Shown: in pieces, positions 31,896-52,371 of the stretch
Numbering within the stretch: the stretch's first letter is position 1
Layout of the letters: every line of letters starts with the position of its first letter
Origin: Clostridia bacterium
GTDB taxonomy: Bacteria > Bacillota > Clostridia > Christensenellales > Aristaeellaceae
Direction of reading: 5' to 3'
Assembly (NCBI GenBank): GCA_017448975.1
Contig: JAFSKN010000028.1
Location: forward strand, 2,035-66,034
Length of the DNA: 64,000 nucleotides
The notes under the pieces: generated by a model
What the model was told of the DNA's origin: nothing
The model's database searches: none
What the model saw: only the letters and a program-made list of their open reading frames with translations
Position numbers and translations under genes: made by a program

Positions 31896-31972
31896 CTGGG
31901 TGTAGCGCAGCTTGGTAGCGTGCTTGAATGGGGTTCAAGAGGCCGAGAGTTCAAATCTCTCCACCCAGACCA
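31896..31972 (+). tRNA. tRNA-Pro (anticodon GGG)
   Basis: Hand-folded cloverleaf of 77 nt. Acceptor CTGGGTG/CACCCAG, anticodon arm CTTGA-ATGGGGT-TCAAG, T-arm GAGAG-TTCAAAT-CTCTC, encoded CCA. Confidence 0.9.
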
Positions 31973-31973
31973 C

Positions 31974-32008
31974 GGGAAGCCTTATGAAATAAGGCTTCCC
32001 GATTTTTT
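31974..32008 (+). terminator. rho-independent terminator after tRNA-Pro
   Basis: GGGAAGCCTTA/TAAGGCTTCCC stem followed by TTTTTT. Confidence 0.75.
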
Positions 32009-32032
32009 ATGCCCCAACGATGCCCCAACGCG

Positions 32033-33169
32033 TTACAAAGACTGTATGAAAGACTCCATTTTTGAGGCACTGTCTTTCTGCATAGTCATAGTAACTGTTG
32101 CATAAACATCCATCGTGAATGCCACCGTTGCATGGCCGAGATTATTGGAAATCGTTTTGTAATCTACACCGTTTTGGATTGCCAAAGTAGCATAAGTATG
32201 CCGGAGATCATGCAGACGCACTTCCGGTAACCCCATCTTTTTCACAATGGATTTAAACCTGTTGAATACTGTTCGAGTTGCCAGATGGTGGCCGAACTCG
32301 TTTGTAAAGACAAAGTTTTCCTCATTGTGGTAGAGCGTTCCGTAATAGAGTTTCCACTCGGCTTGCTTAAGCTTCATCTTTTTCAGGGCTTTAACAACGC
32401 TGGGTGGTATAGAGAACGAGCGTTCCTGCTTATTCTTCAGCGTAGTGAAGGTGTAGGTTTTACTTTTACCGCGAAGCGCTTTGAACTGCCGATACAGATG
32501 GATCGTGCCTTTGTCTAAGTCCACACAGTCCCAAGTCAAGCCGATGAGTTCGGATTCCCTCATGCCGGTAAAGATCGCCACATAGTAGAATTCCTCAAAA
32601 GGATGCCCGTTGATGAGCCGAAGAAACTCAGGCACTTCGTTGTCCAGCAACGGGCGCATTTCCTTTTTCGGCGTCTCATACATAGGAATCTCCGCATCAG
32701 CACAGGGATTCTTTTTGACAAGGCCGTCTTTTTGCGCCCTGGTTATCGCCTTATTCAGAACAAGGTAGATATTCTTCAAAGACTTTTCGGACAATCCCTT
32801 TACATCTTTACAGCGCTTGAGGAAGCGCTGCACAGTAAGCAGCTTCAAGTCCTGGATTTGAATTTGTCCCAAATCAGGTTTGATGTGTACCCGGATATCC
32901 TGCATATATCGCTCAAGTGTGGAGCTTTTTACGCCTGATGTATAGCATTCTGCCCAGGTATCCATCCACTCACCCACGGTGATGTTGTTTTCATCCACCA
33001 AAGTCCCATTGGAATAGTCATTCTGTAATTCAGCTACTTTTTGCCGCACTTCACTTTTTGTTTTTCCATATACATTGAAACGCTTTTCATCAAGAACGAT
33101 ACGGCCTTCCCAGGAATTTGAAGTACGCTTTCTGAAGCTGCCCTCACCGTTTGCTCTTTTTGTTCCCAT
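32033..33169 (-). CDS. int: tyrosine-type site-specific integrase
   Basis: Start MGTKRANGEGS after GGAGG. C-terminal catalytic residues (..RLHDLRHTYAT.., LGHATVAFTMDVY). No TAG codons. GC lower than the flanks. Confidence 0.9.
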   Translation of the reverse strand: MGTKRANGEGSFRKRTSNSWEGRIVLDEKRFNVYGKTKSEVRQKVAELQNDYSNGTLVDENNITVGEWMDTWAECYTSGVKSSTLERYMQDIRVHIKPDLGQIQIQDLKLLTVQRFLKRCKDVKGLSEKSLKNIYLVLNKAITRAQKDGLVKKNPCADAEIPMYETPKKEMRPLLDNEVPEFLRLINGHPFEEFYYVAIFTGMRESELIGLTWDCVDLDKGTIHLYRQFKALRGKSKTYTFTTLKNKQERSFSIPPSVVKALKKMKLKQAEWKLYYGTLYHNEENFVFTNEFGHHLATRTVFNRFKSIVKKMGLPEVRLHDLRHTYATLAIQNGVDYKTISNNLGHATVAFTMDVYATVTMTMQKDSASKMESFIQSL

Positions 33170-33185
33170 GATTATTTCCTCCGTC

Positions 33186-33353
33186 TTAGAGTTGGCATTG
33201 TTCTTCCAGCCATCTGTGCAGCGCCTGAACGCTGACAATCGTTCTTTTCCCCAAGCGAAAAGCCGGGTAAAAACTCTTTTGACGTGTCAGGTTATACGCA
33301 GTTGCTCTGGAAATGTTCTACTGTTTCGCCTATTCTTCGACGGTTAGGGTCAT
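33186..33353 (-). CDS. excisionase-like HTH protein (read through 2 TAG codons)
   Basis: MTLTVEE[TAG]AKQ[TAG]NISRATAYNLTRQKSFYPAFRLGKRTIVSVQALHRWLEEQCQL. TAGs at 33330-33332 and 33318-33320. Classic Xis/AlpA-type HTH directly upstream of int. Confidence 0.7.
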
Positions 33354-33554
33354 TTTTGTTTCTTCTGTCGGAGTTATTCTGCTTTCAAGGTTCACATCGG
33401 AGTTTTCTCCGACAATTCTTTTCTATTCTGCCACTTTTATCAATCTCCTTTTCGCATTTTTGTTGACCTATAGCGCCAAAAACAATGAAATTTATGTTAT
33501 GACGCTTTTCCTTTCAAGAAAAGGGAACATAACATAAAAATCATTGTCAGGTTG

Positions 33555-34088
33555 TTACAAAGTTCTTTTCAAAATTTCTCTGTCCGTTTTCTTCAGCCAA
33601 GCTACCCCCACGGCAACAGCGTCACTCTCGTCGTTGGTGGCGTAATCCTGTTTTCCCACATACTGCTCCTATGCTGCGGCGACGTCTTCTTTGGTCGCTT
33701 TTCCCGATCCGGTCAGCAGCTTTTTCACGGTGGTCGGCGCGATTTCCTCAAACTGTGTTTTGCACATGCGCCAGGCAGCCAGGTCTGCGATGCCCACCAC
33801 CTTGAAAAGAGCCTGAGTTTCGTGCGGGAATCGGGAAAAGCCCTTTTCCCGTACGAACACCGCAACATCCGCGGAAAGTTCCGTGATCAGATCATAGATA
33901 GCCGCCAGAATTTCCCCGTGACAGAAATTCTGCCCGCGATGGTTCAGGTGACAGAGCCTTTCCACGGTGATTTTGCCGTTCTCATACCGCAAGACGGCAA
34001 AACCGGGACACCGCAAGGAGAGATCGGCGCAGAGGATGCGGAGAGAGTCTCCTTTTTTCAGCTCCTTATTGCTCATACGCCGTTTCAT
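33555..34088 (-). CDS. RuvC-like Holliday junction resolvase (1 in-frame TAG)
   Basis: ILCADLSLRCPGFAVL (catalytic Asp) .. VAAA[TAG 33669-33671]EQYVGKQDYATNDESDAVAVGVAWL. The start may instead be 34076. Confidence 0.7.
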
Positions 34089-34386
34089 AGGCGAACATGC
34101 CCCGCAGGATGGCGTGCGCCAGATGATCGTCTGTCTGATCTCCGGCCAAATAAGCGTACAGGTGCTGGATGGCGTGGTTTACATGCTCCTCGGTCGGGAT
34201 TTTCTTGTAGTTCCGATCCTGGAGAGACTCGTGATACTTTTCCGCGCCGTATTTGGCCGTTTCCGCCGCGGCAAACATGGCGTTGGGCGGCAGGAAGTGA
34301 AAGGCGTATGGCGTGGCAGACTGTGCGCCGCCTCTTTCGTTGACCACGGTGGGCGCGTCGGGCTGAACGCCGGTGATGATGGGCAT
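34066..34386 (-). CDS. dATP/dGTP pyrophosphohydrolase-domain (MazG-like) protein
   Basis: FLPPNAM..AKYGAEKY..HLYAYLAGD..DHLAHA pattern recalled from the phage dNTP pyrophosphohydrolase family. No TAG. Confidence 0.55.
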   Translation of the reverse strand: MPIITGVQPDAPTVVNERGGAQSATPYAFHFLPPNAMFAAAETAKYGAEKYHESLQDRNYKKIPTEEHVNHAIQHLYAYLAGDQTDDHLAHAILRGMFAYETAYEQ

Positions 34387-35042
34387 TATTCCGCCGCCTC
34401 CCCTCTCAGCAGGCTGTCAAAGCAAATCGCGCTCCAGGATTCCATGTGACCAGCTTTTCTGGCTTCCTGTAACTGCTTCACCGTGAACCAGTCGCCCATC
34501 AGCTTGTCTTTTTCCAGACAGGAAATATCCTCCCGATCAGTAGAAGTATGATAGATGAGGCCCAGATGAACGTGGTCAACCTCCGTCAGGGTGCTGGACA
34601 GAAAGCCGCACAGGGCAGCATCCGTGATTTCGTCCCGATGGAGTCCCACTTCTTCTTCCAGTTCCCGGTAAAGGGTGTCCAGAACGCTTTCTCCCTCGTC
34701 CATGTGTCCGCCCAGACCGATGCTGTTCTGGCCCAGCAGACGCTCATCCCCACCGATCCGGGTAGTCATGTAGATGCGGCCTGTAGGACGGTGCTCCACG
34801 ATCACATAGGGAATGACCTGCTTGAATTCCGGGTCAGATTCCGCTTTCCAGCGCGGCATAGCGGTCAAATGCTGTTCAATCACTTCCTGAAGCGCACAGT
34901 ACTCGTTTCCATCCTCGTCCGGCTCCAGGATTTTGGGATTGAAACCTTCTTCCTATAGCCCGTCCACCCATTTGGCTTCGATACCCATGATGACCGTGTC
35001 TCTGTATTTCGCTTTGTATTCGTCAGGCGTCATGTTCTTCTT
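34386..35042 (-). CDS. NUDIX hydrolase (1 in-frame TAG)
   Basis: Nudix box GLGGHMDEGESVLDTLYRELEEEVG. N-terminal extension MTPDEY..WVDGL[TAG 34953-34955]EEGFNP. Confidence 0.75.
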
Positions 35043-35511
35043 TCCTCCTCTGAAAATGCTCGGTTTCGTCGATCAGTTTTCCATGTTCTACCCGGTAAAA
35101 CCGCTGATTTGTCGTCCCGCTGTCCAGCCCGCCCAGGTTTTCATCATAGTGACCGATTTTCAGGTAATCCAGTAACGATAGGAACTGCTCAAACGACTGA
35201 ATGCTGTCGCAGCCGCTGTACAGGCAGGTTTTCTATCCAAATCCTCTGACGATTTCCAATGCCTGCCGCTATTCCGAGGGATTCTGACCTTCCCCCATGA
35301 AACACACGCAGGAGATAAGCCCTGCATACGTGCGGATCAATCCCGGCAGGGCTGGCAGCAGCAGTTCTCCCTTGTCCTCCCACAAATAGGGTGAATGGCA
35401 GCCGGAGCAGCGGAAGACGCAGTTGGAAACAGCGATCGTCAGGCTGACTTCCTTTGGCGCCTCCGCCAGCGTCACGGCGTATTCCATGTACCGCAGGGGT
35501 GTCTCAGTCAT
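35032..35511 (-). CDS. nrdG: anaerobic ribonucleotide reductase activating protein (2 in-frame TAGs)
   Basis: Radical-SAM-like Cys cluster (CVFRCSGCHSP), ..GEGQNPSE[TAG 35269-35271]RQALEIVRGFG[TAG 35233-35235]KTCLYSG..LDYLKIGHY..TNQRFY. Confidence 0.8.
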
Positions 35512-35749
35512 CCGGCCCCTCATAGCGGATATAACAGCCATCGCAAATGCGCTGCCCGTCCAGCGTGATGATGTGGCTGCCGGTGATCCAGCCGCCGCAG
35601 ATGGAGCAGGGATAAGCGTTGCGCAGGCTCACCCCGCCGCAGTAGGGACACATGCTGATTTTTTCGTAGGGCGGCGTGTCCAGCCCATGCTTTTCTTCCG
35701 CCTCTTGGGGCTGTTCAAATGTCCGCCCGCATTCCGTACAGATCAGCAT
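35504..35749 (-). CDS. zinc-ribbon protein, unknown function
   Basis: Four CxxC-type pairs (CTECG, CPYCG, CSICG, CDGC). Start MLICTEC 9 nt after GGAGGA. No TAG. Confidence 0.5.
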   Translation of the reverse strand: MLICTECGRTFEQPQEAEEKHGLDTPPYEKISMCPYCGGVSLRNAYPCSICGGWITGSHIITLDGQRICDGCYIRYEGPDD

Positions 35750-35940
35750 ACGGTCACATCCTCCGGCTATTCGATGTACTGCCCGCAGTCGCAGCCCTTC
35801 CCCTCCCGGAACGTCTGGCAGGGACATTTGTTTTCCGGGATGTGGCGCGGCTTGTTGGGACAGTAGCCGTTGTTCTGCCGGATGCGGCGTTTCAGATTCT
35901 TCAGAAACACCGTATCGGGATTCTTAATCACCCTGCCCAT
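35743..35940 (-). CDS. small Cys-rich protein, ferredoxin-thioredoxin-reductase-catalytic-like (tentative); TAG 8 codons before TGA
   Basis: YCPNKPRHIPENKCPCQTFREGKGCDC has CPC-x8-CxC spacing, as recalled for the FTR catalytic subunit. TAG at 35767-35769. Overlaps the nrdD 3' end. Confidence 0.4.
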
Positions 35941-37801
35941 GACTTGCCTCCAGACCCTTTGCGTAGTACCGCTGGTGTTCTTCCTCCTGCCGTGCCTCCG
36001 CGAACCGGGATACCAGCTTCAGATAGCCAATGACCCGCGTGGCGTAATCCAGGCTTCGGCTGTGACACTTGGGGCACTCGTCCAGGCGGTGCTTGCTGAT
36101 GTAGCCGCACTTTTTACAGAGGGTGTTGGGGATGTTGAAGGTCAGGTAATTGCAGCCGGTTCGGATGGCGGCCTTCAGCAGCAGGGCGTACTGTTCATTG
36201 GTCAGATGCTCGTCCAGGTTGATATGGCAGGCGGAACCGCCGTCCAGATATTTGGTAAATGCGCGGCCGTGCAGCTTTAATTTGTCCAGCACATTCACCT
36301 TGGGATCTTCTACCCGGAAGAAATAGCTGTTGTAGCAGTCCCGGAGCACGAACAGCTTGTCCGCCTTATCCCAGGCGGCATTTTTGACGCCCAAGGATTC
36401 CGCAGGTACGAGTTCGGTATTGAACAGGATGCCATCCTTCCGTGCCTTGCGGTTAGCCTCGTAGATCGGCTGCAATACCGCTTCGGCATAAGCGATATAC
36501 TGGGGACTGTCCGCGTCGATCTCGATGCCCAGGGCTTCCGCGCCTTCCAGGAAACCGTTGACGCCCACGGTCAGATACTGCTTCTCCGGGGAAACGAAGC
36601 CCGCGTCATAGACCGGCAGCAGGCCGGCGGCCTGACGCTCCTTCAGGATGGCGTTGAAGGCCAGCAGGTACTTGTGAACCTTCTCCACCATCTGCGTCAT
36701 GTCGTCCCGGACGTCCTGCAAGCTATTGTCCCAGACGGCGTTCTGCACCAAACGATTGACATTGATGGTCATGACGCACTTGCTGCCCGTGGCAACGCCG
36801 CCAGCGCCTAATGTGTAAGAAAAGGTATTGTCCGGCAGTTCATTTTTCTACCGACAGCACGATGCCAGCGAATCCACCGAATCGGAGCGGTACACGAAGA
36901 AGCTGTGTCCTTCCGCCCACATTTCCGCCACGAAGTCAGCCCATTCCTGATCCACGAAATCCTCGCCGTTGTCCAGCAGGTTCACCGTTTCCACCGGGAA
37001 GGTCAGCAGCTTGCGCTTCCGTTCCTGATTGAACCAGCGCATGAACCGCTTTTGAAGCCAGGACACCGATTCCCAGTGCATCTTGGTGCCATCCGGAAAG
37101 AAAAAACTCTCAAACATCCCATAGAAGTACGGCTGGTCAAAATAGGCGATATTCCAGAAGCAGGACTGATTTCCGCGGGCGGCAGCAGGCTGATTGATGG
37201 AATATACCACCTGCTCAAAGGCGTCGGTGATCACCTTATCCATGGTGCGGTGGCGAGTGGATAAATCTACGACCTCATCAGGGCGTTGGTAATAATCGTC
37301 ACCGTACTCCTTGCGGATGAAATAATCCATGTAGCTGAGGAACTCCGGTGTGGAAATGGCCCCGCAGAACTGGCTGGCCAGGGCGAATACCAGGTTGATG
37401 AACGCGCCGCAGAAGGAGGAAAGGTTCTTGGGCGCTTCGCTGGTGCCGCCGATACAGGTATTGCCATAGAACAGAAAGGGATACAGGGTCACGCTGGCAC
37501 AGTAGGGCTTGCCTAAAATACCTACTTCGTCGTGCCGATACAGTTCATGCTCCTCCAGCTGCCGCAGGTATTCCTCGGCGGTGTTGGTACCGTACATCTC
37601 CTGGAGCTTCCGGTACATTCCCAGGCGGTTGATGGCGACGGCGTCCGCCTTGTAGATTTCCGTTTCCAGGGTGGCGATGTTCTTGTTTTCCACGTTGGCA
37701 TTGGGATCGACCTCGCTGCCGGTGGCGGCATTGGATGCCTTTCCATAGCGGTCAATGAAGCTCTAATGCCGGCTGTGATCGGTATATTTGTCAATTCTCA
37801 T
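35924..37801 (-). CDS. nrdD: anaerobic ribonucleoside-triphosphate reductase (2 in-frame TAGs)
   Basis: 625 codons once ORFs 36848-37693 and 35924-36772 are joined: ..SLASCCR[TAG 36848-36850]KNELPDNTFSYTLGAGGVATGS.. Glycyl-radical C-terminus ATRVIGYL. N-terminal TAG at 37763-37765. Confidence 0.9.
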
Positions 37802-38432
37802 TTTGCCCATCCTTTCTGCTGTCCTCGATGGAAATGCCATCGAAAATAATCGGTATTCTTTCTTTGGCCTGCTCCAGCAGCAGCGCCATCTACGCCCGCA
37901 TTTCCGGGTAAGCCGCCGGATCGGTGCGGAGCGTGAAGATGTGCAGCCACTCCCGCAGGTTGGCCTTCATGATGATTCTTGTTGCGGTGGAATTGGGCTA
38001 CACCTTCCGGGCGTCCTCCGGCTTAATGCCGTGAGCCAGCATATCGTGATAAACCTTTTCCGCGTCCTCCATGCACTTCCGCCAAAGCCCGGAAGCCCAG
38101 GAGCCTTCCCGATAGAACAGGGGCCGCACAAAGGAAATCTCCCCGCTCATGTTCACATACCGCTGGCTTTCGATGCAGAAGCTGGCCAGCCTGTGCCGGG
38201 TAAGCTCCGCCATCACATCCCGGGACGTGATCTATTCCACCGTCATGCCTGCAAACTCCACAGGCGATAGATGGCCCCGTTTCAACAATGCTTCTACAAA
38301 ACGCGGCGCGCTGTCCTCGGTGATTTTGGCTTCCGAACGGTAACAGTTTCGGCCTGCCTGCTCAATCTGGCGCAGCGCCTGCATTCCGTCCTCCGGGGTG
38401 AGGATACGGGCAGATTGCTGAATGATCTTCAT
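37791..38432 (-). CDS. thyX: FAD-dependent thymidylate synthase ThyX (3 in-frame TAGs)
   Basis: RHRLASFCIESQRY ThyX motif. TAGs at 38232-38234, 37998-38000 (ARKV[TAG]PNSTAT) and 37890-37892. Confidence 0.85.
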
Positions 38433-38785
38433 TCCGCTTCCTCCGTTTCCGACGCTTCTTCTGCTTCAGTGCTCATGCTGGCCTCCTCATCCTATTTCGC
38501 TTCTGCCTCTGCTTCCGCTTCGGATGGCATATCGCCATTCAGCCGCGACATCATGGTGCGGTAGGTCAGCCCGCAGCCGATCACCGTGCCGCCGTCCAGC
38601 ACCAGCACGCTTTTCGTGGCCCGGCCAAAGGTCATATCTACAAACTGGCAGGGCTTGGCTTCCTTAGCCGCCCGGATCTATCGCCGGGCGCTGGCGGTCT
38701 GTGGATTGAGTACCATGGAAACCCGGTTGGCGCAGACCACATGGCCAAAGCCGGCATGGATAAACCGTAATGGGATCGTGTTCAT
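38429..38785 (-). CDS. RemA/DUF370-like protein with acidic tail (2 in-frame TAGs)
   Basis: IHAGFGHVVCANRVSMVLNPQTASARR[TAG 38678-38680]IRAAKEAKPCQFVDMTFGRATKSVLVLDGG matches the RemA pattern recalled from Bacillus. Second TAG at 38492-38494, before the Glu/Ala tail. Confidence 0.6.
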
Positions 38786-38823: not shown

Positions 38824-38908
38824 TGGTAGGAGCAGCGGGATTTGAACCCGCACGCCGTAAGGCAAAGGTTTTAGAGACCTCCGCGTCTGCCAGTTCCGCC
38901 ATGCTCCC
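38824..38908 (-). tRNA. amber suppressor tRNA, anticodon CUA, on a tRNA-Leu (type II) scaffold
   Basis: Hand-folded, 85 nt. Acceptor GGGAGCA/TGCTCCT, D-arm TGGCGGAACTGGCAGACGC, anticodon arm GAGGT-CTCTAAA-ACCTT, long variable arm TGCCTTACGGCGT, T-arm GCGGG-TTCAAAT-CCCGC, discriminator A73, encoded CCA. Confidence 0.9.
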
Positions 38909-38944: not shown

Positions 38945-41900
38945 TCACGGGATCAGCTCATAATCTGTGATCCACAGGTCGAACATATCGGAACGGGGAC
39001 GCGCCTTGCCGTCGATAAACTGATACGCGGGCCGCCGATCCCAGGAAATCAGGCGGAGGATGGCTCCCTCCGCAATGGGCTTTGCCTGGAACAGCGCCTT
39101 TTTGAGCTTCATGACGCCCGTGTGTCCCGTGGACAGGCTGCACAGCTTCACCTTGGGGCTGTAGCGCTCGTCCACCTCCAGCACGGCGTACTCGCTTTTC
39201 AATTTCGGGAACAGGGAGACCGGAGTACCGCAGTGGTCGATCTCAAACCGCGCCTGCTCATGGGGCGGAATGGTTTCCTCCGGCAAACTTCTCTCGATTC
39301 CGCGAAGAACGCGCAGCCGCGCTTCCCGGGTCTTAGGGATATGGGCTTTGGAGAAGTGCGATTCCCCTTCCCGGAATTCCCGGTACATCTTCTATAGCTT
39401 TCCGTTCCCGCCGAACTCCCGGAAGTAATCCAGCCGGATGAGAATTTCGATCACCTGGGAATCCAGGGCGGGATGCAGCTCCATATCGTACAGCAGATCG
39501 GTAAAGCAGGCATAGAAGCCATCGCGCATGGCGTACAGCGCCTCGGCCGCCTTGCGGCTGATGTGCTTTACCGACGTCTATGCGTCGGAAATCGTCCGGG
39601 CTTCATGGTCGATGTAAAAATCCCGGTTATCCTGCCTGAATTTGCAGGGAACGATGCGGATGCCGAAGCCCTTCCGCATTTCTTCCTTGGCAAGGGATAT
39701 GCGGTCTTTGTCTCCCTTGGCGGCATAGCCGGAGAGCAGGGTGGTGTAGTATTCCAGGGGATGATGGGCTTTCAGCCATGCGCCGTAGAGGCTGTCCAGG
39801 GCGACGCAGACGGCATGGCTGGAATTATATAAATAGCTGGTCGCGTCCTCTATGATCCTCCAGACCCTCTCAGCGGCCTCCGGATCGCTCTTGGCCGCAA
39901 AACCCTCCAGAAATCGCTGCTTCAGGGGCAGCACCTTTTCCGGGTGCTTTTTCCCAATGGCCTTGATGGCCGCATAGGATTCCGGCGCAGAAAACCCGGC
40001 GTGCTGAAGCGTTTTCATCAGCTGCTCCTGAAACAGGATGAAGCTGGACGACATTTCCCGGGTCTGGATCAGGGTGTCGAAGGCCGGAATGCCGTAATCA
40101 AAGTGCTTCCGGGCCAGAAAGATGGGCAGCATGGATTTGAAGGCAGGACGTACCGCCGCCACAAAGGCAGCCAGCTCCGTAATGTTTTTCGGCTTGTACT
40201 GCATCACCTTTTCCCGCGTTTTTGGCTGCTCCACCTGGTTCAGCCCCATAGTCAGTCCTTCCGCGTACATACGCCACGTCTCCTTATCCTGGGCTGTGAG
40301 CCGCAAAAGCTCGTTCACATCCGGCTGCTCCATCCCAATGCGTTTGAAAGCTTCGTTATTGGTTTTCACCACTTCCACCAGAAGCAGGTCATTCTTTAGA
40401 TATCCGAACTGCTCCGCCGTCGCGCCGTCGATGAAGGCAGCGTAGACCGTCTTTTTCCTGGTTCCCTTGCTGTTGATGCGGATGATCCCGATTTCCCTGC
40501 GGATGTCCTCCCTGCACAGCAGATAGGCGCAGGGATGCGGGGAAATGGAGTCGATCACGCCCATGTACTGCTCGCTGGCGGCGGCCAATTCCCGGTATTC
40601 CTCCGGGATATAGTCGGAAAGGGCGATTTCCTCGTCGTCCTCCGCATATTTGACCGCTGATTCGTAGGCTTTCAGCTTGTCCCCGATGCTGTTGGCGATA
40701 TCGAAGGAAAGATTGGAAGCCCGGCAGTACATTTTCCAGGCGGAAAGCCGCTTCAGGGTGCCATAGGCGATCATAGGAGCGCTGCGCCACTCTCCTAAAA
40801 CCTCTGCCTGGGCTTCCTCAAAGGCTTCCCGGTTGGCTACGTTCATGTCGATATCCGGCAGGCTGCCGGACAGGATTCTGTCCGCCGAAATGAACCGATC
40901 CGGGAACATTTCCACAGGGATGGCGAAGCGGTCAATGGAGGACAGGCCCAGCAGGGAGTTGGTGTAGTAGCTGGGTGCGCTGCCGCGTCCCGTTTTGGTG
41001 ATGATGCCGCCTTTTTCTACGGAGCGGCGCACCAACTCGTGATCCAGTAGGAAATAATCGCTCATGCCGGTGGAGGTGACCACATCCGTTTCGTATTTCA
41101 CACCTTTCGCACGGACACTCTTTTCTTCCTTCGTCATACCAGCGGTTTGCTGTTCAAAAGCGGCGTTCACCAGATCGAGATACTTATGATTCCGTTCCTC
41201 CTGTGTCAGTTCAGGATAGATGGTGGGCAGCTTTTTGCTCTTGTCGAATTCCACATCCTCGAATGATTCAAAGATGCGGGTATTCTCCATGGCCTCCCGG
41301 ATTTGCGCGTCGGAAAGAACGCCCTGCCGCTGAAAGCGCTGAAACGCTTCCGCGCCGGAGGGATAATCCATATACCAGCCGCCTTCGTCCTCGTAGAGAA
41401 TGTGGTTGGCTTCCAGCCGCTGCTGCCGAAGGGTGGCGTCCCGCGGATGGATATAATGACTGTCGGTTCCCATGATGAGGGGAATGCCGTGTTTCCTGTA
41501 CAGGCCCAGCAAGAATTGGTTGACCTCTCGCTGCTTGTCCGTGTCGTGATACTGCACTTCCTACATGAAGCTGTCCCGAAAGTGCTTTGCGAAACGGAGG
41601 ATCAGGCGTTCCGCCTCCTCCCAGCCGTACTTGAACACCCCGGCAATGCAGGCCGTGGTCACAAACACATCCTGCGGGTCAAGGGCCAAAAGCAAATCCA
41701 GATCGACACGGGGGCGGTAATAGTACCCGCTGATGTTGGCTTCGGAGAGGGCGAAATTCAGGTCGCCGACACCCTTCCGCGTTTTAGCGGCCAGGATGAT
41801 GTGACAGTTGGCGTTATCCTTTTCCCGCCTGTCCTTCACGAAATAGGCTTCGCTCACATACCGCCACCGCAGGCCGTATTTCTTCGCCAGCTCGGAGCAC

Positions 41901-42109
41901 TGCCAGTAATTGCCCTGGGTGCCGTGCTCGCAGGAGGAAAGAATGGTATGCCCCAATTCTACGGCGCGCTTAACGTAATCTTCGTTGGTCACCACGCTGT
42001 CGGTCAGCATCACGTTGCTGTAACAGGAATGCCGGTGATAGCAGGCGTAGGGAATTTCCTTTTCTTCTGACGCTGCGGACAGAGGGACGGGCTTTTCCTA
42101 AAGTGTCAT
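38945..42109 (-). CDS. dnaE: DNA polymerase III alpha subunit (4 in-frame TAGs)
   Basis: 1054 codons once three ORF fragments are joined. PHP domain (YHRHSCYSN..), ..RDSFM[TAG 41561-41563]EVQYHDTD.., pol core, ..TISDA[TAG 39578-39580]TSVKH.., ..GNGKL[TAG 39392-39394]KMYREF. A TAG at codon 4 (42098-42100) applies if the ATG at 42109 behind AAAGGAG is the start. Confidence 0.9.
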
Positions 42110-42115
42110 AACGGA

Positions 42116-42889
42116 TTACTCCTTTATCCCGGAATGAATGATTTCTTCGCCCACAGGACAATGCAGGCGGGTGGAGCAGATGAAACGGCAGAAATAGCCG
42201 GAGGAAGAAACCAACCAATCTTTTTCTTCTTTTATCGCTCGGATCGTCTGATCGATCCAGTCCATGGTTTCATCGTACCGGTCCATGGAAAAGGGCTCGT
42301 CGATGAATGTACCGTAGCGGAACATATTGAACCGCAGCATGGATGGGTATTCTCCGAACCGTTCCTTCACATACGCGGCGTAAGTGTATAGCTGCCGGGT
42401 ATTGGCGAACAGCTCCTTTTTCATGGACTGCATGGACTTGGATTTGTGGTCGATGACGATGATGCCGCCATCACGCCTGTCCCTCAGTACCAGATCAGCG
42501 ATGCCCACAAAGGGATTGCCACGGATATCCAGTTCAAACCTTTCCTCCACGGACAGGATTTCCATATCCTCCCCAAAGCCGTCGAAGGACAGGAAATACT
42601 GCTTCCCTTCCTCAAAGTATTTTCCGGCCAAGCCCCGGGGAAAGGGCGGAAAGTAATGCCTGACCGCCTCGTCGTACTCCGCTTCATACCTGTCCGCCAG
42701 TTCAAAGGACAAGAGCTCCCCTTTTGCCCAGCGCTCCAACAGGCTGTGGCAATGCGAACCGTACTCCGCGTAAGCGTTTTGCTCCTGGGGAACATGATCA
42801 ATGTATTGCAGCTTGAACGCCAAAGAACATTGATCAAATAGCTGCTACTTGCTGAATGACCATTTCATGTCATGCGGTATATCACACAT
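42116..42889 (-). CDS. PD-(D/E)XK nuclease, Cas4/RecB-like with 4-Cys cluster (1 in-frame TAG)
   Basis: MCDIPHDMKWSFSK[TAG 42845-42847]QLFDQCSLAFKLQYI.., IADLV..VIDHKSK, C-terminal CRFICSTRLHC. Confidence 0.75.
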
Positions 42890-42899
42890 ACTACCTCCG

Positions 42900-44690
42900 T
42901 TAAAAGGGATGCGCCGCCTCCGCCATCTGCACTGCGTATTCCGGCAGGCTGTCCGCCCGGGGATTCGGTGGTGTGACGCCCTCCCTGTTCCACGAGAATG
43001 TATTCCTGTCGCCCTTGTCCGCCTGATAGATCCTGCGGCTGTCCGGGCAATAGCAGCACTCGATCAGCCTGCACACGCCGCCTTCCCGGTTTTTCAGCAC
43101 CCGCAGGTTGGGACGCTCCACGACGATGGCGCTGTCCGCCTATCGGATGGTGGCGCTGCTGCCGCCGATGTCATCCTGGCCCAGCTTTTCGCCCTGCTTC
43201 ACCTTGCGGGGATGGGCCACCAGCAGCACATGGACGTGATACCGTGTGGCGAACTTTTTGAGGGCGTTGGCGAACTTGCCCTGGGCTTTTGTTTCCTCGT
43301 CCGAATCGGACAAAGCGGTCATCAGGTTGTCCGCCAGGAACAGCTTGCAGCCGTACCGCCGCGCCGCCATCTGGAAAACCTTCAGGATGCTTTCCGATTG
43401 GTTCACTTCAAAGATTTCCTGGTTGTCAAAGAGATAGAATTTGTCCCGATAGTAATCCATCTACCGTTCCTGCACGGCATACGGCACGGTGGGCACTTTG
43501 ATGCCGCGCACCGGGTCATACCGAAGCCCAATGTATTCCGAACCCGCAGCCTGGAGATTGATCCACTCCTGGAATTTCTCTTTGGTCAGTTCTCCGCTGT
43601 AGGCGCAGACGGAATATCCTTGTTCGATAGCGGTGAGCAGCAGTTGACCGGATAAGACGCTTTTTCCTGCCCCTGGCCGGCCTGTGAATACCGTCATTGC
43701 CCCTTCCGCCTATCCGCCAATCAATTCATCCAGCGCCGGGATCATGGTTTTGATTCGTGGAACGGTGGTAGGATCGTAAGGAACCACATCCGACTACTGA
43801 ATGATTCCCTTGACAGGCACCGGCTGAGCGGCGTCCAAGGTCTCCTGAAGCGTTTCCGGCCCATAATAGAACAGGATTTCGTTGGCGTCCTTGCAGGGTG
43901 TGCCGTCCGGTTTGTCTGGGTATTCCTCCACCACCATACACCGTGCTTCATCCAGCCGCCGCACAGCCTCCCGCACCATTTTTCTGCCCGGCTCGTCGCT
44001 GTCCCCGAACAGGATGATCGTCTGAAACTTCTCCAGCCAGTCCCAGCAATGGTCGATCCAATCCAGATTGGTGCAGCCGCAGGGAACGGACACCGCGTTG
44101 CGGATTCCCACCTCATACAGGGAGAGCGTGTCGATCTGGCCTTCCGTGATGATCAGGGGCTGGGAGAAGGAGCATAAATCCATGCCGAACAGAATGGGCC
44201 GGGTGTTGGAAGCCTGCCACTCCTTTTTCTCCTTGGGCTGGGGCTTGCGCGGCGCCCGGTATTTCACATATTCCTATGTTCCGTCCCGGAAGAAAGGAAA
44301 AACAATGTTGCCCTTTTCATCCGCCCCCAGCCGGAAGGTTTCCAGCGTCGCTTTTGATATCTTCCGTTTCTCAAAGTACAGGATGATTTCTTCTGTCAGC
44401 GGCTTTAGTTCCACATCCGGGAGCGCAAACTGTTTTCTTGGGGAGGCGGCGGGACGGAGAAGCTCCGCCCGCTCGCCAAAGTGTTCCGCCAGGGTCTCGA
44501 ACCGTCCCTTGACCCCGCATCCGCCACGCTTGCACACATACACGCCATCCCGCAGGTTCAGTGCGAAGGTGTACCGGTCATGGCTGTCGCCGCCGTGACA
44601 GAAGGGGCAGTAATCCGGGATGAGCTCGTCCCCGCGCAGCCGGTATGGGGTCAGGTGCGCCGCGGCGAACCTCAGAATGTCAGCCTGCAC
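42900..44690 (-). CDS. bifunctional primase-helicase, T7 gp4-like (5 in-frame TAGs)
   Basis: Zn finger CPFCHGG..CKRGGCG, TOPRIM (ITEGQIDTLS, FGDSDEPG), and helicase Walker A LDELIGG[TAG]AEGAMTVFTGRPGAGKS. TAGs at 44274-76, 43794-96, 43710-12, 43461-63 and 43140-42. Confidence 0.85.
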
Positions 44691-45234
44691 AGGGACACGC
44701 CTCCGAACAGCATTGATAGCGCCGTCCCATTTGAAAAATGCGGCGGGATATCTGGCTTTCGCTCAAGCCCACGGCCTGGCTGATTTCCTTCTAAGAGCAG
44801 CCATCCAGCCGCATAACAAGGATTTCGCAATCTTGGCCGGATAAATCATGCAAGAAACGTTCCGTGTCCACGTCGCCGATCACCTGATCCTCCATCTGCA
44901 CCGCTTCATGCTGCACGGCTGGTACATCCAGGGACAGAATGAACACCTTCCTGATTTCTACCCGGAATCTGCGCTGTGGAATGCTCACGGCCGCCATCCT
45001 GCGCACATACTCTCCCAGGGCGTGGATAACGGCATAATAGCAGTTTTCCGCTTCCTCCAGGGTATCGGCGGCACGGAGCAGGAGCAGCAGCGCCTACCGC
45101 GCTTCCTGGCGTAGATCCTCCGTATTGTCGGGATACCGCCTGCCCGCTTTTTGCTGATACCGGCGCACGAGCCTTTGAATATCCCTCTCATGCTCCTTCA
45201 GGAATTGGGCTTCCTGTTCCATTGTCATGTTCAT
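44680..45234 (-). CDS. sigma-70 family (ECF/phage-type) sigma factor (2 in-frame TAGs)
   Basis: Region-2-like EDLRQEAR[TAG 45094-45096]ALLLL and region-4 HTH LSGQDCEILVMRLDGCS[TAG 44791-44793]KEISQAVGLSESQISRRI. Confidence 0.55.
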
Positions 45235-45247
45235 GCGCTCCCTCCTG

Positions 45248-45613
45248 TCAAATGGGCAGATCGTCTTCGGGTGGGGCGGGCGGAGCAGCCTGCGTCTTTT
45301 GCGCCGGAAGCTCCATGTCCGTGATACTCACCTGAACGGAGGTACGCTCCACACCGTTTTTGTCCAGATAGGGACGGATGACCAGATCGCCCACCACGGT
45401 GATCTTATCGCCCTTGTGCAGGTACTGCATGGCGATCTCGGACAGCCGGCGCCAGGCGCTGCACCGATAGAAATTGGTGATGTATTCGCCCTTGGCGTCC
45501 TTAGTGCGGGTATCCGCCGCCTATGTGAAGGATGCGCAGGGAACGTCGCTCACCTGGGAAAGAACAGGATCAGCCGTCAGACGCCCTGCGGCAGTCAGTT
45601 TGTTTACGCTCAT
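45248..45613 (-). CDS. ssb: single-stranded DNA-binding protein (1 in-frame TAG)
   Basis: OB-fold N-terminus MSVNKLTAAGRLTADPVLSQVSDVPCASFT[TAG 45521-45523]AADTR.. and an acidic tail ..PPEDDLPI. ATGA overlap with the upstream gene. Confidence 0.8.
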
Positions 45614-46641
45614 GCTTCAGCCCCCTTGAATTCGTCATAAATCGCCTGGAGAACCCTTTCGTCAACGATTGCCCGGTAATTGGCGGTGCCGCCGGTAATG
45701 GCCCGCATCCGCTGGGCGATCTTCTCCCTTTCCTCCTGGGTAATATCCGTGCAGCAGGCTTTCATCACCGCGTCCACCTTTTCAGCCAGGGTCCGGGTAT
45801 CCTCCTCTGAAGAAGGCGGTTCAGGGTTCGATTCAGACGGCTCCTTGTTTTGTTGCTTCACTTGCGGCTTTTCCGCCGACGGCGCAGGCGCGTTCTTGTC
45901 CGCGTCGCCCAGCCAGCCCGCGATTTTCGCGCCGGTGTCCGGGGTGATCACGAAATACTGGCCGTCGAACAGGCCGGTACGATCCTTGGTGGCGGCTGCG
46001 GAATGATCCTGGGCCAGCTCAAAGAACACGCTGAACTCGTACTCCAGCCCTTCTCGGAAAATAGGTGCCATACCCACCTTGCGGGGCGCTTTCTTGCCCT
46101 GCCCGTTGTCCTCGATGACGTACTCCGTCTTGGTGCGCAGGGTAGCCGCCACGTGCATGGGGCATTGCAGGATCTTGTCCACCAGCTTATTGTGCAGCGG
46201 GGTCACATCCCGCCAGGCGGTATAGCCGTTGCCGCTGCGTTTGGCGATGTTGGCCTGCATATCCAGCAAGCCGCCCTCGCCGGACCAGGCGTGGGACAGG
46301 GAGTCGATGATCAGGAACTCCACCCCCGCGTCCTCCGCCGCTTCGATGGCTTCCAGATACCTGGCTGCGCTGAACGGCGCTTCCAGGGCGATGGCCAGGT
46401 ATTCTCCGATCCGGGTACCGCCCACCACAGTGCCCACATATAGGCTGCCGGAGCCGTTCTCCGTGTCGATGACGCAGATTTTCTCCCATACCGCCTCATT
46501 GGAGATGCCGGGATGCACCGCCCGAACCTACCCGAAGCCCATGAGCAGGGTGCTCTACGTTTTCCCGCTGCCGGAGCTTCCCGCCACGCCGATCTTGAGG
46601 CGCGCCATCTGCCGTTTCGCTTTGACGATTTGAATAGCCAT
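45610..46641 (-). CDS. RecA-like AAA ATPase (Sak4-type recombination protein) (2 in-frame TAGs)
   Basis: Start after GGAGGG. Walker A GSSGSGKT[TAG 46555-46557]STLLMGFG[TAG 46528-46530]V.., Walker B FLIIDSLS. Confidence 0.7.
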
Positions 46642-46852
46642 TTTCAATCCCTCCATTCATTTTGGCCTTCATAATATAAGAGATGCAATTTTCGCGATTT
46701 CTTGCATCGCCGGCCAAAAATATTTTTTGCACACTCACCGTGAGTCTGCATCTGATGGGCCCCATTATAACAAAGGCGGAAATCCGCCGCAATGTGGAAC
46801 TTTTTTCGCGGAGGAAGTGAAAGTGTCATATGGTAAGCATTTCTTCTCAACG

Positions 46853-46888
46853 AAAAAAAGCCCCGCCCCACAGCTTGTGGAGCGGGAT
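46853..46888 (-). terminator. rho-independent terminator after the hydrolase gene
   Basis: On the minus strand, an ATCCCGCTCCACA/TGTGGGGCGGGGC stem followed by TTTTTTT. Confidence 0.6.
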
Positions 46889-46917
46889 GTAGCTTTCCAA
46901 GAGATCATAAATCTCTT

Positions 46918-47886
46918 TTACCTCACCGGCATATACCGCTCAAGATACGTTTCGATGGCTTCCATCCACTGTCTGTTCACCGTGTCGTCGTTTTGCAGTC
47001 CATGCCCGGAATGGGGCAACTCAAAGTACTGAAAATCCACATTGTTTTCTTCCAGCGCTGCTTTCAGGCGCAGAGAACCAAGATAGGGCTGAACCTTATC
47101 GCAGGTTCCATAAGCGACAACGGAGGGAACAGGATTGCTGCTGACCCATTCCGCGGCAGCAATGGGCTTGACCTTTTCCAGATACGTTTTATCCTGAATC
47201 TCCTGTGCCGTGATTTCAACGCCCGCCATGACGCTGAACATCCCAGCGCAGGCTTCATCGTTCTGATCCAGCCCGTAAATGCCCCAATCTTCCTGATAGA
47301 AGCAGGAGGGACCGACCGCCCCGAACGTCAGGACAACAGGGACAGGCGCTTGGGCGCCGTCACGATAGGTGTAAATCATGGCAAGGCAATGTCCTGCTGA
47401 ACCGCCTGCCATGGTCAGCTTATCAATGTGATACCCGGCCTTTTCAGCTTCCTCGATCACAATTGGAATAGCCGCTTTTATCTCGTTGGACTGAGAAAGG
47501 ACGCTGGCGCTGTTGACATCTGTCCGTAAGGTGTAGTTGATACCGGCGGCCACATAGCCCTTACTGCACAGCCAGGAAAGCATCTCTTTGTCGCCTGCCT
47601 TGTCCCCGGAAGTAAAACCACCAGCATGAAGATAAACCACCAGTCCGTAGCTGGCATGTGTATTGTCCTTCGGCAGATACAAGTCAAACTTGTTCGCTGC
47701 CCCTTCGCCGTAATCAAGATCGGTTTTCCGTGTTCCGATCTCGTCGCTCCACTGGATAGCGTACTGCTTTGCCCAGGCAGGTTTGATGAAGACTTTCGAG
47801 GCTGCTCCGACAATAACAGCCAGAATAAAAACCAGAATTCCCAGCCAAATGGGCACGGCTTTCACCTTCTTCTCTCTTTTGCTCAC
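46918..47886 (-). CDS. alpha/beta hydrolase (esterase/lipase type) with N-terminal TM anchor
   Basis: HGGG-like YLHAGGFTSGD and nucleophile elbow AGGSAGH. Lower GC than neighbours. Confidence 0.75.
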   Translation of the reverse strand: MSKREKKVKAVPIWLGILVFILAVIVGAASKVFIKPAWAKQYAIQWSDEIGTRKTDLDYGEGAANKFDLYLPKDNTHASYGLVVYLHAGGFTSGDKAGDKEMLSWLCSKGYVAAGINYTLRTDVNSASVLSQSNEIKAAIPIVIEEAEKAGYHIDKLTMAGGSAGHCLAMIYTYRDGAQAPVPVVLTFGAVGPSCFYQEDWGIYGLDQNDEACAGMFSVMAGVEITAQEIQDKTYLEKVKPIAAAEWVSSNPVPSVVAYGTCDKVQPYLGSLRLKAALEENNVDFQYFELPHSGHGLQNDDTVNRQWMEAIETYLERYMPVR

Positions 47887-48146
47887 AGGAAATTCCCTCC
47901 AAACAGCATACCGCCCAGCAGCATATTCATGAAAGCCCTGACCGCCAACCGTCCGAGAACAAATCCGATAACGACCAGCGCCGCGATTACAATGATTCGT
48001 TTTGCCTCAATTGACATTTTGCACTCTCCTCCCATTTGATTCTTGACAGATTCAGCACTGTGTGCTATTCTTGATTTGCTAAAACATTTGTTTTAGCGAT
48101 AATGATTGTATCAGCAAGTGGCGCTGTTGTCAATGGGAGGAGCAAA

Positions 48147-48683
48147 ATGGAACAAAAACGCAAAACTGTATCACCGTTCAGCAATGAAGCCAGGAACGCC
48201 TATGTGGTAGAACATATTACGGATTCACTATTGACAAGACTGAAAGAAAAGCCGCTGGCGGATATTGCCATCAGCGAGCTTTGCGATGCGGCGGGGGTCG
48301 GCAGAACGTCCTTTTACCGCAACTTTGAATCCAGAGAGGATATTGTTAGAAAATATATTCGCGGGCTCCTGAACGGCTGGAAGCACAATTGGGATGCCAC
48401 GGGCGAAGAATCTAACGCTAAAATGTACGGAAGCCTGTTTCAGTATTTGAAGGAGAATGCGGATTTATTTCTCATGCTAAAGACACGCGGCTTGATGTAC
48501 CTTTTCCTCGAAGTCTTTATGGAAATCTGGGGGCCAAGGCCGGAATATGAAAACATTTGGGCCTATACTACAGCCTTCATCGCCTATGGAACCTATGGCT
48601 GGATTGAGGAATGGATCAATCGTGGTATGCAGGAATCCGCTGAGACGATGTCGGAGATGCTTTTTTCGCATGGTATGAAGTAA
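48147..48683 (+). CDS. TetR family transcriptional regulator
   Basis: HTH ISELCDAAGVGRTSFYRNFESRED. Start 7 nt after GGGAGGAG. Confidence 0.8.
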   Translation: MEQKRKTVSPFSNEARNAYVVEHITDSLLTRLKEKPLADIAISELCDAAGVGRTSFYRNFESREDIVRKYIRGLLNGWKHNWDATGEESNAKMYGSLFQYLKENADLFLMLKTRGLMYLFLEVFMEIWGPRPEYENIWAYTTAFIAYGTYGWIEEWINRGMQESAETMSEMLFSHGMK

Positions 48684-48786
48684 AATATATCGTTGTTAAA
48701 CCGCAAATATGAAATACATTTTCCTTGTAATTCCTATATGCTTTATGTATAATGGACGTGGAAGAATAATGGGAGGTTGACGTTCG

Positions 48787-49245
48787 ATGCCGAAAAAGAA
48801 AATCACTACGATCAAAGAGCTTCGCGCCGCGCAGAAGCTGTCTCAGGCTGCCTTCGCAAAAACGATAGGCGTAAGCACAGCCTCCGTAACCGCCTATGAA
48901 GCAGGCCGGGTGAATCCCAGCGAGAAGGTTCTGGAAAAGATCAGAGAAGTCTATAACGTGGATTTGTCTCCCAAGCCAGTAAAGAAAGCGAAAGCGGCAA
49001 AGCCTGCCGCAGAAAAGCTCAAGGCACCCAAGGCAAAACGCGCAGGCAAGGCAAAGGCCGAAAAGAGCGCGCCTGCGCAATCAGAAAAGACTGAAATCAT
49101 CATCCAGTCTCCGATGGGCGGAACCATTACGCCGGAGGAAATCATCGCCAGGATCGGGGCTGCCGATAAGATTTATATCCGCGTGGACGAGAACAAAGCC
49201 TATTGGGTAAAGGGCGAGGAGACCGGCAGTATTGATCTGTGGTAA
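48787..49245 (+). CDS. XRE-type HTH protein with Lys/Ala-rich (histone H1-like) linker
   Basis: HTH LSQAAFAKTIGVSTASVTAYEAG, then KPVKKAKAAKPAAEKLKAPKAKRAGKAKAEK and a small C-terminal domain. Confidence 0.65.
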   Translation: MPKKKITTIKELRAAQKLSQAAFAKTIGVSTASVTAYEAGRVNPSEKVLEKIREVYNVDLSPKPVKKAKAAKPAAEKLKAPKAKRAGKAKAEKSAPAQSEKTEIIIQSPMGGTITPEEIIARIGAADKIYIRVDENKAYWVKGEETGSIDLW

Positions 49246-49283
49246 GTAAAAAAACAAAAGAAAAAACAGAAAGGGGCATCACC

Positions 49284-49562
49284 ATGAACAAGCGCGAACT
49301 CATCGAAACAGTATCCTCCAAAGCGGAAATCACAAAGAAAGAAGCTGATGCGGTCGTCAATGCGACCCTGGACGCGATCATTGAAGGACTTGCCTCCGAA
49401 GGCAAGGTGATCATCCCCGGCTTCGGTTCCTTTGAAGTGCGGAACAAGACCGCCCGTGAGGCCCGCAATCCCCGTACTGGCGAAAAGATCAAAATTGCCG
49501 CGAAGAGAGCGCCTGCGTTCAAGCCCGGCAAAGCGATGAAAGACGCCGTGGAAAAGAAATAA
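49284..49562 (+). CDS. hup: HU family DNA-binding protein
   Basis: MNKRELIETVS.., ..FGSFEVRNKTAREARNPRTGEKIKIAAKRAPAFKPGKA. Confidence 0.9.
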   Translation: MNKRELIETVSSKAEITKKEADAVVNATLDAIIEGLASEGKVIIPGFGSFEVRNKTAREARNPRTGEKIKIAAKRAPAFKPGKAMKDAVEKK

Positions 49563-49577
49563 GGAGCGGGCATAGGA

Positions 49578-50129
49578 ATGGAAATCGAAGGAAAGCATGC
49601 CGTCATTACCCCCGAAGGCGTATTCATCATCGGCACCTACGATGAAAATGGCATTCCTAACGCCATGAACGCAGCTTGGGGTATGCAGAGCGACATGGGT
49701 GAAATCACCCTGATGCTGTCCAAGCACAAGACCACCGAAAACTTTGAAAAGACCGGGGCGTTCACCGTTGCGTTTGGCACAGCAGACACTGTTCTGATTT
49801 CCGATTATTTTGGCGTGGAAACCGGCAGCAAGGTCAACAAGATCGAAAAAGCCGGGTGTCATGTCCATAAGAGCGCTCATGTAAACGCCCCGATCATCGA
49901 AGAATACCCTCTGACGCTGGAATGTAAGGTGCGTTCCTGGAACCCGGAAACGGGTTATCTGATCGGAGAAATCGTGGCGTCTCAAGCTGATGAGTCCATT
50001 TTAACCGACGGCAAGGTGGATCTGAGCAAGCTGCGTCCTATTATCTTCGATCCTGCCGCTGGAGCTTACCGCGTGGTTGGAGAAATTGTCGGGAAAGCAT
50101 TTCATGACGGTTTGAAGTTAAAGCAGTGA
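49578..50129 (+). CDS. flavin reductase family protein
   Basis: 183-aa split-barrel-like protein. Assignment from recalled family features (PNAMNAAWG..). Confidence 0.65.
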   Translation: MEIEGKHAVITPEGVFIIGTYDENGIPNAMNAAWGMQSDMGEITLMLSKHKTTENFEKTGAFTVAFGTADTVLISDYFGVETGSKVNKIEKAGCHVHKSAHVNAPIIEEYPLTLECKVRSWNPETGYLIGEIVASQADESILTDGKVDLSKLRPIIFDPAAGAYRVVGEIVGKAFHDGLKLKQ

Positions 50130-51146: not shown

Positions 51147-51337
51147 GCCGCGCCTCCTTCCGTCTGCGGAAGCTCCATGTACTCCCGCAGAATGTCCAGC
51201 ATCCGCAGTGTGATGGGATAAACCCAATGCGTGAGGCCCTTCTCGTAATATTGCCGGAGAAAGGGAATCCGGTGCGCATAGAAGAACTGCTCCAGATAGC
51301 GGTCAGCGGTCACAAAGAAAGTTTTGTTCACCTTCAT
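51143..51337 (-). CDS. hypothetical small protein
   Basis: 64-aa ORF with an ATGA junction to the recombinase gene. Confidence 0.45.
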   Translation of the reverse strand: MKVNKTFFVTADRYLEQFFYAHRIPFLRQYYEKGLTHWVYPITLRMLDILREYMELPQTEGGAA

Positions 51338-51347
51338 CCCTCCTGCG

Positions 51348-52342: not shown

Positions 52343-52371
52343 TTATCTTCCTCCTTCCTGTGCGGTTTTAC

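Follow-up and report, generated by a model that had tools for sequence, protein, structure and literature searches.

A phage-like element in the 64,000-nucleotide stretch of Clostridia bacterium DNA analysed here (the window, to which all positions refer unless another locus is named) is written in two codes, and we put the probability that this division gates its excision at roughly 0.55. On one side are genes that the host can read, namely the tyrosine integrase gene int, those for a candidate repressor and a second recombinase, and a block of accessory genes spanning at least 27 kb. On the other side are a replication operon and the small excisionase-family gene xis, located directly upstream of int, both of which carry in-frame TAG codons. 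The window contains the left end of this integrated element, which would be larger than 32 kb and extend from about position 31946 past 64000. The hosts of such elements are uncultured Clostridia from ruminant guts. As outlined below, the dependence of xis on a suppressor tRNA is well supported at the level of sequence, and a code-gated excision switch built on this dependence is plausible.

TAG codons in int and xis

The original prediction stated that the integrase gene lacks TAG, and its 378 codons indeed translate without interruption up to a TAA stop. The protein matches the Pfam families Phage_integrase (PF00589, 88.4 bits) and Phage_int_SAM_3 (PF14659, 42.3 bits), representing a catalytic domain and an N-terminal SAM-like core-binding domain, and the HDLRH motif and a downstream tyrosine are visible in its translation. 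An identical protein is encoded in the same context on at least 23 metagenome contigs. Of the 35 leucine codons in int, nine are TTG and none is TAG. The gene is separated from the xis stop codon by a spacer of 16 nt, and has its own GGAGG Shine-Dalgarno sequence 7 nt before the ATG, therefore Int can be made when the translation of xis aborts.

The second part of the claim, that xis has 55 codons with two TAGs among the first 12, was correct as well. Its translation reads MTLTVEE-TAG-AKQ-TAG-NISRATAYNLTRQKSFYPAFRLGKRTIVSVQALHRWLEEQCQL-stop, with the TAGs located at 33332-33330 (codon 8) and 33320-33318 (codon 12). After both TAGs there is no in-frame ATG or GTG, and the sole start-type codon is a TTG situated 22 codons before the stop, thus a useful xis protein needs read-through. 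When TAG is taken as a sense codon, the frame is also open upstream (33354-33485), with two further TAGs, and encodes there the peptide NLESRITPTEE, similar to the N-terminal extension (NLDxGI.P.E) that is conserved in xis of other cassettes. The gene may start at a GTG at 33395 or further upstream, and the TAGs at codons 8 and 12 remain regardless. The ratio of nonsynonymous to synonymous substitutions (dN/dS) of xis between cassettes is 0.02-0.31, with synonymous change saturated, so that purifying selection spans the TAGs and extends past them. On this basis we rejected the possibility that xis is a pseudogene, and consider it to be read through.

With leucine at the TAG positions, the xis protein matches the helix-turn-helix (HTH) family HTH_17 (PF12728) with 49.5 bits (cut-off 27), compared to 37.6 bits with glutamine, and the NCBIfam excisionase-family domain TIGR01764 with 37.3 bits (cut-off 28.8). 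It also matches phrog_66, annotated as 'excisionase and transcriptional regulator'. An improbable alternative is that the protein regulates transcription, as a small AlpA-like or MerR-like factor, instead of being a directionality factor, in which case its recoding would say nothing about excision. HTH_17 and TIGR01764 are DNA-binding families that include regulators, there are weak matches to AlpA, MerR and an HTH of the anti-phage MAD1 type, and a sequence search of the PDB matched no solved structure. However, the gene is small, co-oriented with and immediately upstream of a tyrosine integrase gene in all eight cassettes examined, including that of a mobilisable element, and both the phrog_66 match and the above-cut-off score for TIGR01764 argue for an excisionase.

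The hairpin directly after ruvC has a predicted RNA fold of -31.5 kcal/mol (z = -3.8), is conserved in the related locus L019, and is probably a terminator or operator that separates the replication operon from xis and int. Given this stable hairpin and its U-run, xis and int would probably form a separate transcription unit.

In the replication module there are 26 TAGs per 385 leucine sites (6.8%), and the TTG:TAG ratio is 36:26. This ratio provides a sharper test than the rate per leucine site, since TAG and TTG are one mutation apart. Within the window alone, the absence of TAG from int has a P value of 0.087 per leucine site (0/35) and of 0.0075 based on the ratio (9:0). For xis, with TAG at 2 of 8 leucine sites, the probability of two or more is 0.097, or 0.044 when calculated per codon, and its ratio of 1:2 differs from that of int with p = 0.045 (Fisher test). 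The asymmetry between int and xis is therefore marginal in this single window. These ratios do agree with the earlier statement that xis shares the TAG-containing gene set with the replication module, and that int belongs to the TAG-free set.

The same asymmetry was found in homologous elements, which turn it into a firm result. In a comparison of eight int-xis cassettes, with integrases that are 56-78% identical, xis contains TAG in all four cassettes from recoded elements and in none of the four from non-recoded elements, and the integrases are TAG-free throughout. Aside from the window, the recoded cassettes are those of L019, which belongs to the same recoded family, and L021, a different TAG-recoded phage, both with a TAG at codon 8 of xis and a second TAG at a new site, and that of L048, a phage like L021, with a TAG at codon 8 only. 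The cassettes without TAG in xis come from two phages without clear recoding (L017 and L049), a mobilisable element (L050), and a remnant with a frameshifted int (L058). When the four recoded cassettes were pooled, xis had 7 TAG and 6 TTG codons versus 0 and 39 for int (Fisher test, p = 1.3e-5). In the integrase tree, these four cassettes and L017 form one clade. Although L017 is the sister of the window, it has a TTG at codon 8, indicating that the codon state follows the code of the carrier element. Judged from these codon counts, the asymmetry stems from strict avoidance of TAG in int, and xis behaves like the replication genes.

The related family loci were retrieved via the polymerase, and thus independently of the integrase. 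Their slot after ruvC contains six kinds of integrase, the 378-aa tyrosine integrase, two other tyrosine integrases and three large serine recombinases, so that the integration module must have been swapped often. Seven family integrases, representing these six kinds, have no TAG in their coding part, against 14.2 expected (P = 4.6e-7).

Such swapping could also account for the asymmetry as a by-product without regulatory function, int being TAG-free because it was taken over from standard-code elements, or because Int is needed at entry before the tRNA is available, and xis simply drifting between TTG and TAG. We regard this as unlikely, albeit with several observations in its favor. Among close relatives this one slot holds six different integrases, the GC content of the int-xis cassette is 46% versus ~57% for the rest, the TAG share of xis equals that of the module, and the codon table makes TAG mutationally isolated, so that shared TAGs can persist without selection. 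Nevertheless, int and xis have been co-inherited, with saturated synonymous sites, and yet int has TAG at 0 of 39 TTG-type sites and xis at 7 of 13, therefore recent arrival cannot explain int alone. Even if the asymmetry were a by-product, the synthesis of Xis would still physically depend on suppression.

Other integrases provided some additional observations. The serine integrase gene of L014 uses TAG as its stop, which is followed by CAA CAA TAG AGA CAA TAG GAA TAA (L014 20260-20286), giving three TAGs before the TAA, and with an active suppressor this integrase would gain up to 8 residues. None of the truncated integrase homologues that were checked for interruption by TAG turned out to be cut by it: P0088 carries a frameshift, P0048 is a remnant that has lost its N-terminal end, and P0011, P0033 and P0120 all break at HDLRH into the same foreign sequence. 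The latter three are different integrase homologues that diverge right after HDLRH into PDVKQATK, and it appears that the same mobile insertion targets the HDLRH site in integrase genes.

Reading of TAG and extent of the recoded block

The element encodes a tRNA with anticodon CUA, whose variable arm is long, whose discriminator base is A73 and whose D-arm sequence is that of the tRNA-Leu genes of the hosts, and which in alignments is unlike tRNA-Tyr and tRNA-Ser. In 11 related loci the gene directly follows that of the DNA polymerase III alpha subunit, and no promoter-like site was found in the region directly upstream of it. When each module gene was aligned across 10-15 related loci, 61 informative TAG columns were obtained, in which the majority residue was leucine 47 times and glutamine twice, with a leucine background of 8.4%. 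In addition, the non-recoded xis homologues have TTG or CTG, both leucine codons, at both TAG positions of the window. The anticodon is not among the features that leucyl-tRNA synthetase recognises, and amber suppressors derived from tRNA-Leu insert leucine. Based on the leucine-type body of the tRNA, the TAG columns, the codons in the xis homologues, and the best HTH_17 score being obtained with leucine, we conclude that UAG is decoded as leucine by the tRNA-Leu(CUA) of the element, and not as glutamine (code 15), the charging with leucine being deduced from the alignments. The papers searched on phage recoding give TAG as glutamine (code 15), and none of them gives it as leucine. Pipelines that assume code 15 would mistranslate these elements, and standard-code pipelines fragment them; the public gene calls at this locus are broken at the in-frame TAGs.

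When TAG is read as sense, a continuous minus-strand operon of ~13.5 kb emerges, running from 46656 down to 33555 with the tRNA gene inside. Its 14 protein genes all end with TAA or TGA, and 12 of them contain TAGs, 26 in total. Including xis, the region from 33186 to 46656 holds 28 in-frame TAGs distributed over 13 genes. Of these 28 TAGs, 24 are followed by a purine (12 by G and 12 by A), three by C and one by T, compared to 51% purines after ordinary leucine codons (P = 1.2e-4), which fits codons tuned for read-through in competition with a release factor.

Upstream of 46.9 kb, 20 minus-strand genes have no TAG at 449 leucine sites (P = 2e-14 at the module rate), with a TTG:TAG ratio of 37:0. 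The next 10 kb past the window (L051 1-10000) is likewise TAG-free, so that the TAG-free block, which adjoins the recoded operon, is at least 27 kb long. This accessory block is common to relatives, and also holds two large proteins of unknown function (721 and 810 aa) together with numerous small acidic ones. Among the divergent TAG-free genes, the one for the XRE-family HTH protein is a candidate for the repressor gene. A walk further upstream over L051, L053, L056 and L060 met TAG-free accessory genes only. Neither structural nor lysis genes turned up in the 32 kb of the element covered by the window, in the next 10 kb (L051), or in 40 kb of the closest IMG/VR relative. In two respects these sequence comparisons go further than the original prediction: TAG encodes leucine, and other genes of the element, spanning ~27 kb or more, also lack TAG.

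Not a single one of 29 host genes ends in TAG (window 1-31740, with 13 TGA and 11 TAA stops, and 5 more genes in L061 1-4033), the flanks of related elements have no TAG among 17 stops, and the sampled host genes contain no in-frame TAG. Apparently the host lineage makes no use of TAG at all, in which case a suppressor of TAG would do it next to no harm. The lack of TAG stops in the host genes and in the flanks could also mean that the host terminates poorly at UAG, because of a weak or absent release factor 1 (RF1) or a suppressor of its own, in which case Xis and the replication proteins would be made regardless and nothing would be gated. We find this very improbable. The host genes are without in-frame TAG, so TAG is not a host sense codon, and a host that read UAG would leave no purpose for the dedicated tRNA(CUA), which is conserved in the element and its relatives. 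Moreover, the existence of blocks without TAG inside the element implies that in some state TAG carries a cost.

Layout of the element and its surroundings

The positions of the different features are listed in Table 1. In L021, a non-integrated relative, the 27 nt at the 3' end of tRNA-Pro adjoin int without the remainder of this tRNA gene, i.e. as attP. Since L021 carries just that stretch beside its integrase, we consider these 27 nt to be the attachment core. Neither the tRNA-Pro 3' end nor the arm downstream of it was found to recur anywhere in the window, therefore attR and the right end of the element lie beyond 64000. Between the attachment core and the integrase stop are two tandem direct repeats, ATGCCCCAACG, at 32009-32019 and 32020-32030. 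Repeats of the ATGCCACAA type are kept in all other int-xis cassettes, and the ATGCCCCAACG repeats are candidate arm-type binding sites for the recombinase.

Table 1. Features of the window, and integrases in the corresponding slot of related loci
Feature	Position	Strand	Details
Host tRNA-Pro(GGG)	31896..31972	+	ARAGORN, Rfam; directly beside the integrase
Attachment core (attL)	31946-31972		Last 27 nt of tRNA-Pro, AGAGTTCAAATCTCTCCACCCAGACCA
Element-side arm	31973..32030	+	Terminator-like hairpin (31973-32001) and two direct repeats
int, tyrosine integrase	32033..33169	-	378 codons, 0 TAG, stop TAA
xis, excisionase-family HTH	33186..33353	-	55 codons from ATG, TAG at codons 8 and 12
Long hairpin with U-run, I1 inverted repeat	33482..33547	-	Directly after ruvC
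Recoded operon, distal half	33555..38785	-	Open reading frames with TAG as sense, Pfam; TAG counts: RuvC-like 1, dATP/dGTP diphosphohydrolase 0, NUDIX 1, NrdG-like 2, Zn-ribbon protein 0, NrdD 2, ThyX 3, RemA-like 2
Element tRNA, anticodon CUA	38824..38908	-	85 nt; ARAGORN, Rfam; 36 nt past the polymerase gene, mid-operon
Recoded operon, proximal half	38945..46656	-	Open reading frames with TAG as sense, Pfam; TAG counts: DNA polymerase III alpha 4, PD-(D/E)XK nuclease 1, primase-helicase 5, sigma-like factor 2, SSB 1, Sak4-like ATPase 2
Cargo insertion, ~2 kb	46695..48708		Esterase (-) and TetR regulator (+); blastn against L014, Pfam
Divergent TAG-free genes	48787..50129	+	XRE-family HTH, HU, flavin-reductase-like
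Accessory block, TAG-free	50196..64000, continues past window end	-	PHROGs
Second tyrosine recombinase	50196-51227	-	In the TAG-free block
ArdC-like anti-restriction protein	58497-59363	-	In the TAG-free block
Other integrases in the slot after ruvC	L014 18685-20286; L023 12682-13959; L024 18246-20456; L026 18561-19904; L029 16596-18269

The insertion with the esterase and TetR genes is absent from the closest relative, L014, which is 85% identical, and a strong terminator is present at 46887-46861. An Rfam scan of the element returned just the two tRNAs and no ribozyme or other RNA family. Among GenBank phages, the closest match to the polymerase III alpha subunit was found in Bacillus phages with 41% identity, and there was no annotated close relative. 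Scanning IMG/VR with the integrase gave relatives at 22-26% only, and scans of this database with an exact stretch of the suppressor tRNA, or with a degenerate xis motif that included the codon-8 TAG, gave no match.

Two further observations concern other mobile sequences. Inside the TAG-free block, L051 contains a reverse-transcriptase gene (RVT_1; L051 2418-3656) followed by ~1.3 kb without open reading frames (4300-5600), possibly as part of a group II intron or a retron-like unit. Inteins or introns with homing endonucleases are suggested by two features of some relatives (L019 1235-2188; L024 4114-6930 and 12325-15399; L023 238-3054): a polymerase gene that is split by a GIY-YIG-like open reading frame, and primase-helicase and NrdD reading frames that are 300-400 codons longer.

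A possible gate on excision and comparison with known systems

The proposed switch would operate as follows. The xis and int genes lie in tandem behind the terminator-like hairpin, int with its own Shine-Dalgarno sequence. As long as the replication operon is silent, no tRNA would be made, ribosomes would stop at codon 8 of xis, and xis-int transcripts would yield Int alone, which is the state expected while the element integrates and is stably maintained. Transcription of the operon would let the tRNA mature and UAG be read as leucine, so that full-length Xis and the replication proteins would appear together, after which Int and Xis would excise the element. Because of the two successive UAGs, the output of Xis would scale approximately with the square of the suppression efficiency, thereby sharpening the threshold. 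The scheme presupposes a role of Xis as directionality factor, termination at UAG by the host, silence of the tRNA in the lysogen, and an adaptive value of the arrangement, all of which are inferred. The original prediction had proposed that excision depends on the suppressor and that this constitutes a translational switch. The dependence of xis is well supported at the level of sequence by the comparison with its homologues, and the switch function stays a proposal.

A wider reading, on which we would give somewhat unfavorable odds, is that the private code, with UAG as leucine and its own tRNA-Leu(CUA), serves as a commitment gate for the element as a whole. The directionality factor and the entire replication operon would then be translatable only once the tRNA is switched on, and int, the repressor and the accessory genes would be readable by the host. 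The host may have purged TAG stops, which would make the suppressor harmless. Among bacterial mobile elements such a reassignment of a stop codon would be new, as would this way of controlling recombination directionality.

Several findings weigh against a gate on excision. The statistics are marginal when the window is taken alone, and a promoter scan upstream of xis gave weak matches only (9/12), so that the xis-int promoter is not securely identified. The fraction TAG/(TAG+TTG) is 54% in xis and 42% in the module, thus xis is not enriched in TAG, and there is no sign of selection for its TAGs. TAG has a single synonymous single-step neighbor (TTG), and the shared TAG at codon 8 could reflect mutational inertia; for this reason we downgraded its conservation from proof of selection to weak evidence. 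No xis adjoins the serine integrases or the other tyrosine integrases of relatives, therefore the gate on xis would be a property of one cassette and not of the whole family. The absence of TAG stops from 29 host genes leaves it uncertain how the host handles UAG. Finally, no structural or lysis genes were seen, which makes 'lytic commitment' an assumption.

An excision gate of this kind would be related to what has been described for the TAG-recoded Garnet and Topaz prophages (Borges et al., bioRxiv 10.1101/2021.08.26.457843), in which the integrase is among the few TAG-free genes, and for which the code was proposed to separate lysogeny from lytic growth, as a lysis-lysogeny switch. Like these prophages, one example of which was found in Oscillospiraceae, the element combines many in-frame TAGs with a suppressor tRNA(CUA), is integrated beside a tRNA gene, has a TAG-free integrase, and resides among host genes without in-frame TAG. 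Unlike in these prophages, where TAG aligns best with glutamine (code 15), it stands for leucine here. In them it is mainly structural and lysis genes that are recoded, and replication genes vary in this respect, whereas here the replication operon is recoded, and a TAG-free block of at least 27 kb is present in an element of more than 32 kb, compared to 22-34 kb for the prophages. Excisionases are not mentioned in that paper ('excision' has 0 occurrences), and a literature search found no report of a recoded excisionase. Thus, a TAG-free integrase in a TAG-recoded prophage is already known, and new are the recoded excisionase-family gene, the reading of TAG as leucine by means of tRNA-Leu(CUA), and the pairing of a recoded replication block with a large adjacent block free of TAG. 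If the proposed gate is true, it would provide a concrete case for the code as a lysis-lysogeny switch in one small gene pair, with int always translatable and xis only in the code of the element. Relevant to the evolution and tolerance of a private code in a standard-code cell are the block structure, the repeated swaps of TAG-free integrases, and the scarcity of TAG in the host.

In phage lambda, the balance between Int and Xis is set by the pI promoter inside xis and by sib retroregulation, i.e. by the choice of transcription start and by mRNA decay. The element has the tandem xis-int order in common with lambda and, as proposed here, would also use Int alone for integration and maintenance, and Int together with Xis only upon induction. 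The discriminator, however, would be translational, as the UAGs in xis would be read only by the tRNA of the element. A promoter scan around xis and int found no pI-like promoter, and a 'promoter' inside the 3' end of xis was rejected because it overlaps the start codon of int. The E. coli suppressor supP (Su6), derived from leuX, is a tRNA-Leu-derived amber suppressor with a CUA anticodon, and a laboratory mutant of a host gene. The tRNA of the element likewise has a tRNA-Leu body with CUA, and is expected to insert leucine, but is a conserved gene of a mobile element.

Blocks in standard code next to blocks in which a stop codon is read as sense, together with a suppressor tRNA of the phage, are described for crAss-like and Lak phages (Mgcod preprint, 10.1101/2022.06.29.495998; PMC7886860). 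Such phages are virulent and use TAG as glutamine or TGA as tryptophan in late genes, whereas the present element would be temperate, with TAG as leucine in replication genes and xis. The closest counterpart in logic is engineered: in the part of PMC7969014 that describes a synthetic feed-forward 'leak dampener' in E. coli, an amber-bearing target is expressed only with a co-regulated suppressor tRNA, which removes leak. Unlike this circuit, the element is natural, and it appears to apply the same logic to its replication genes and xis.

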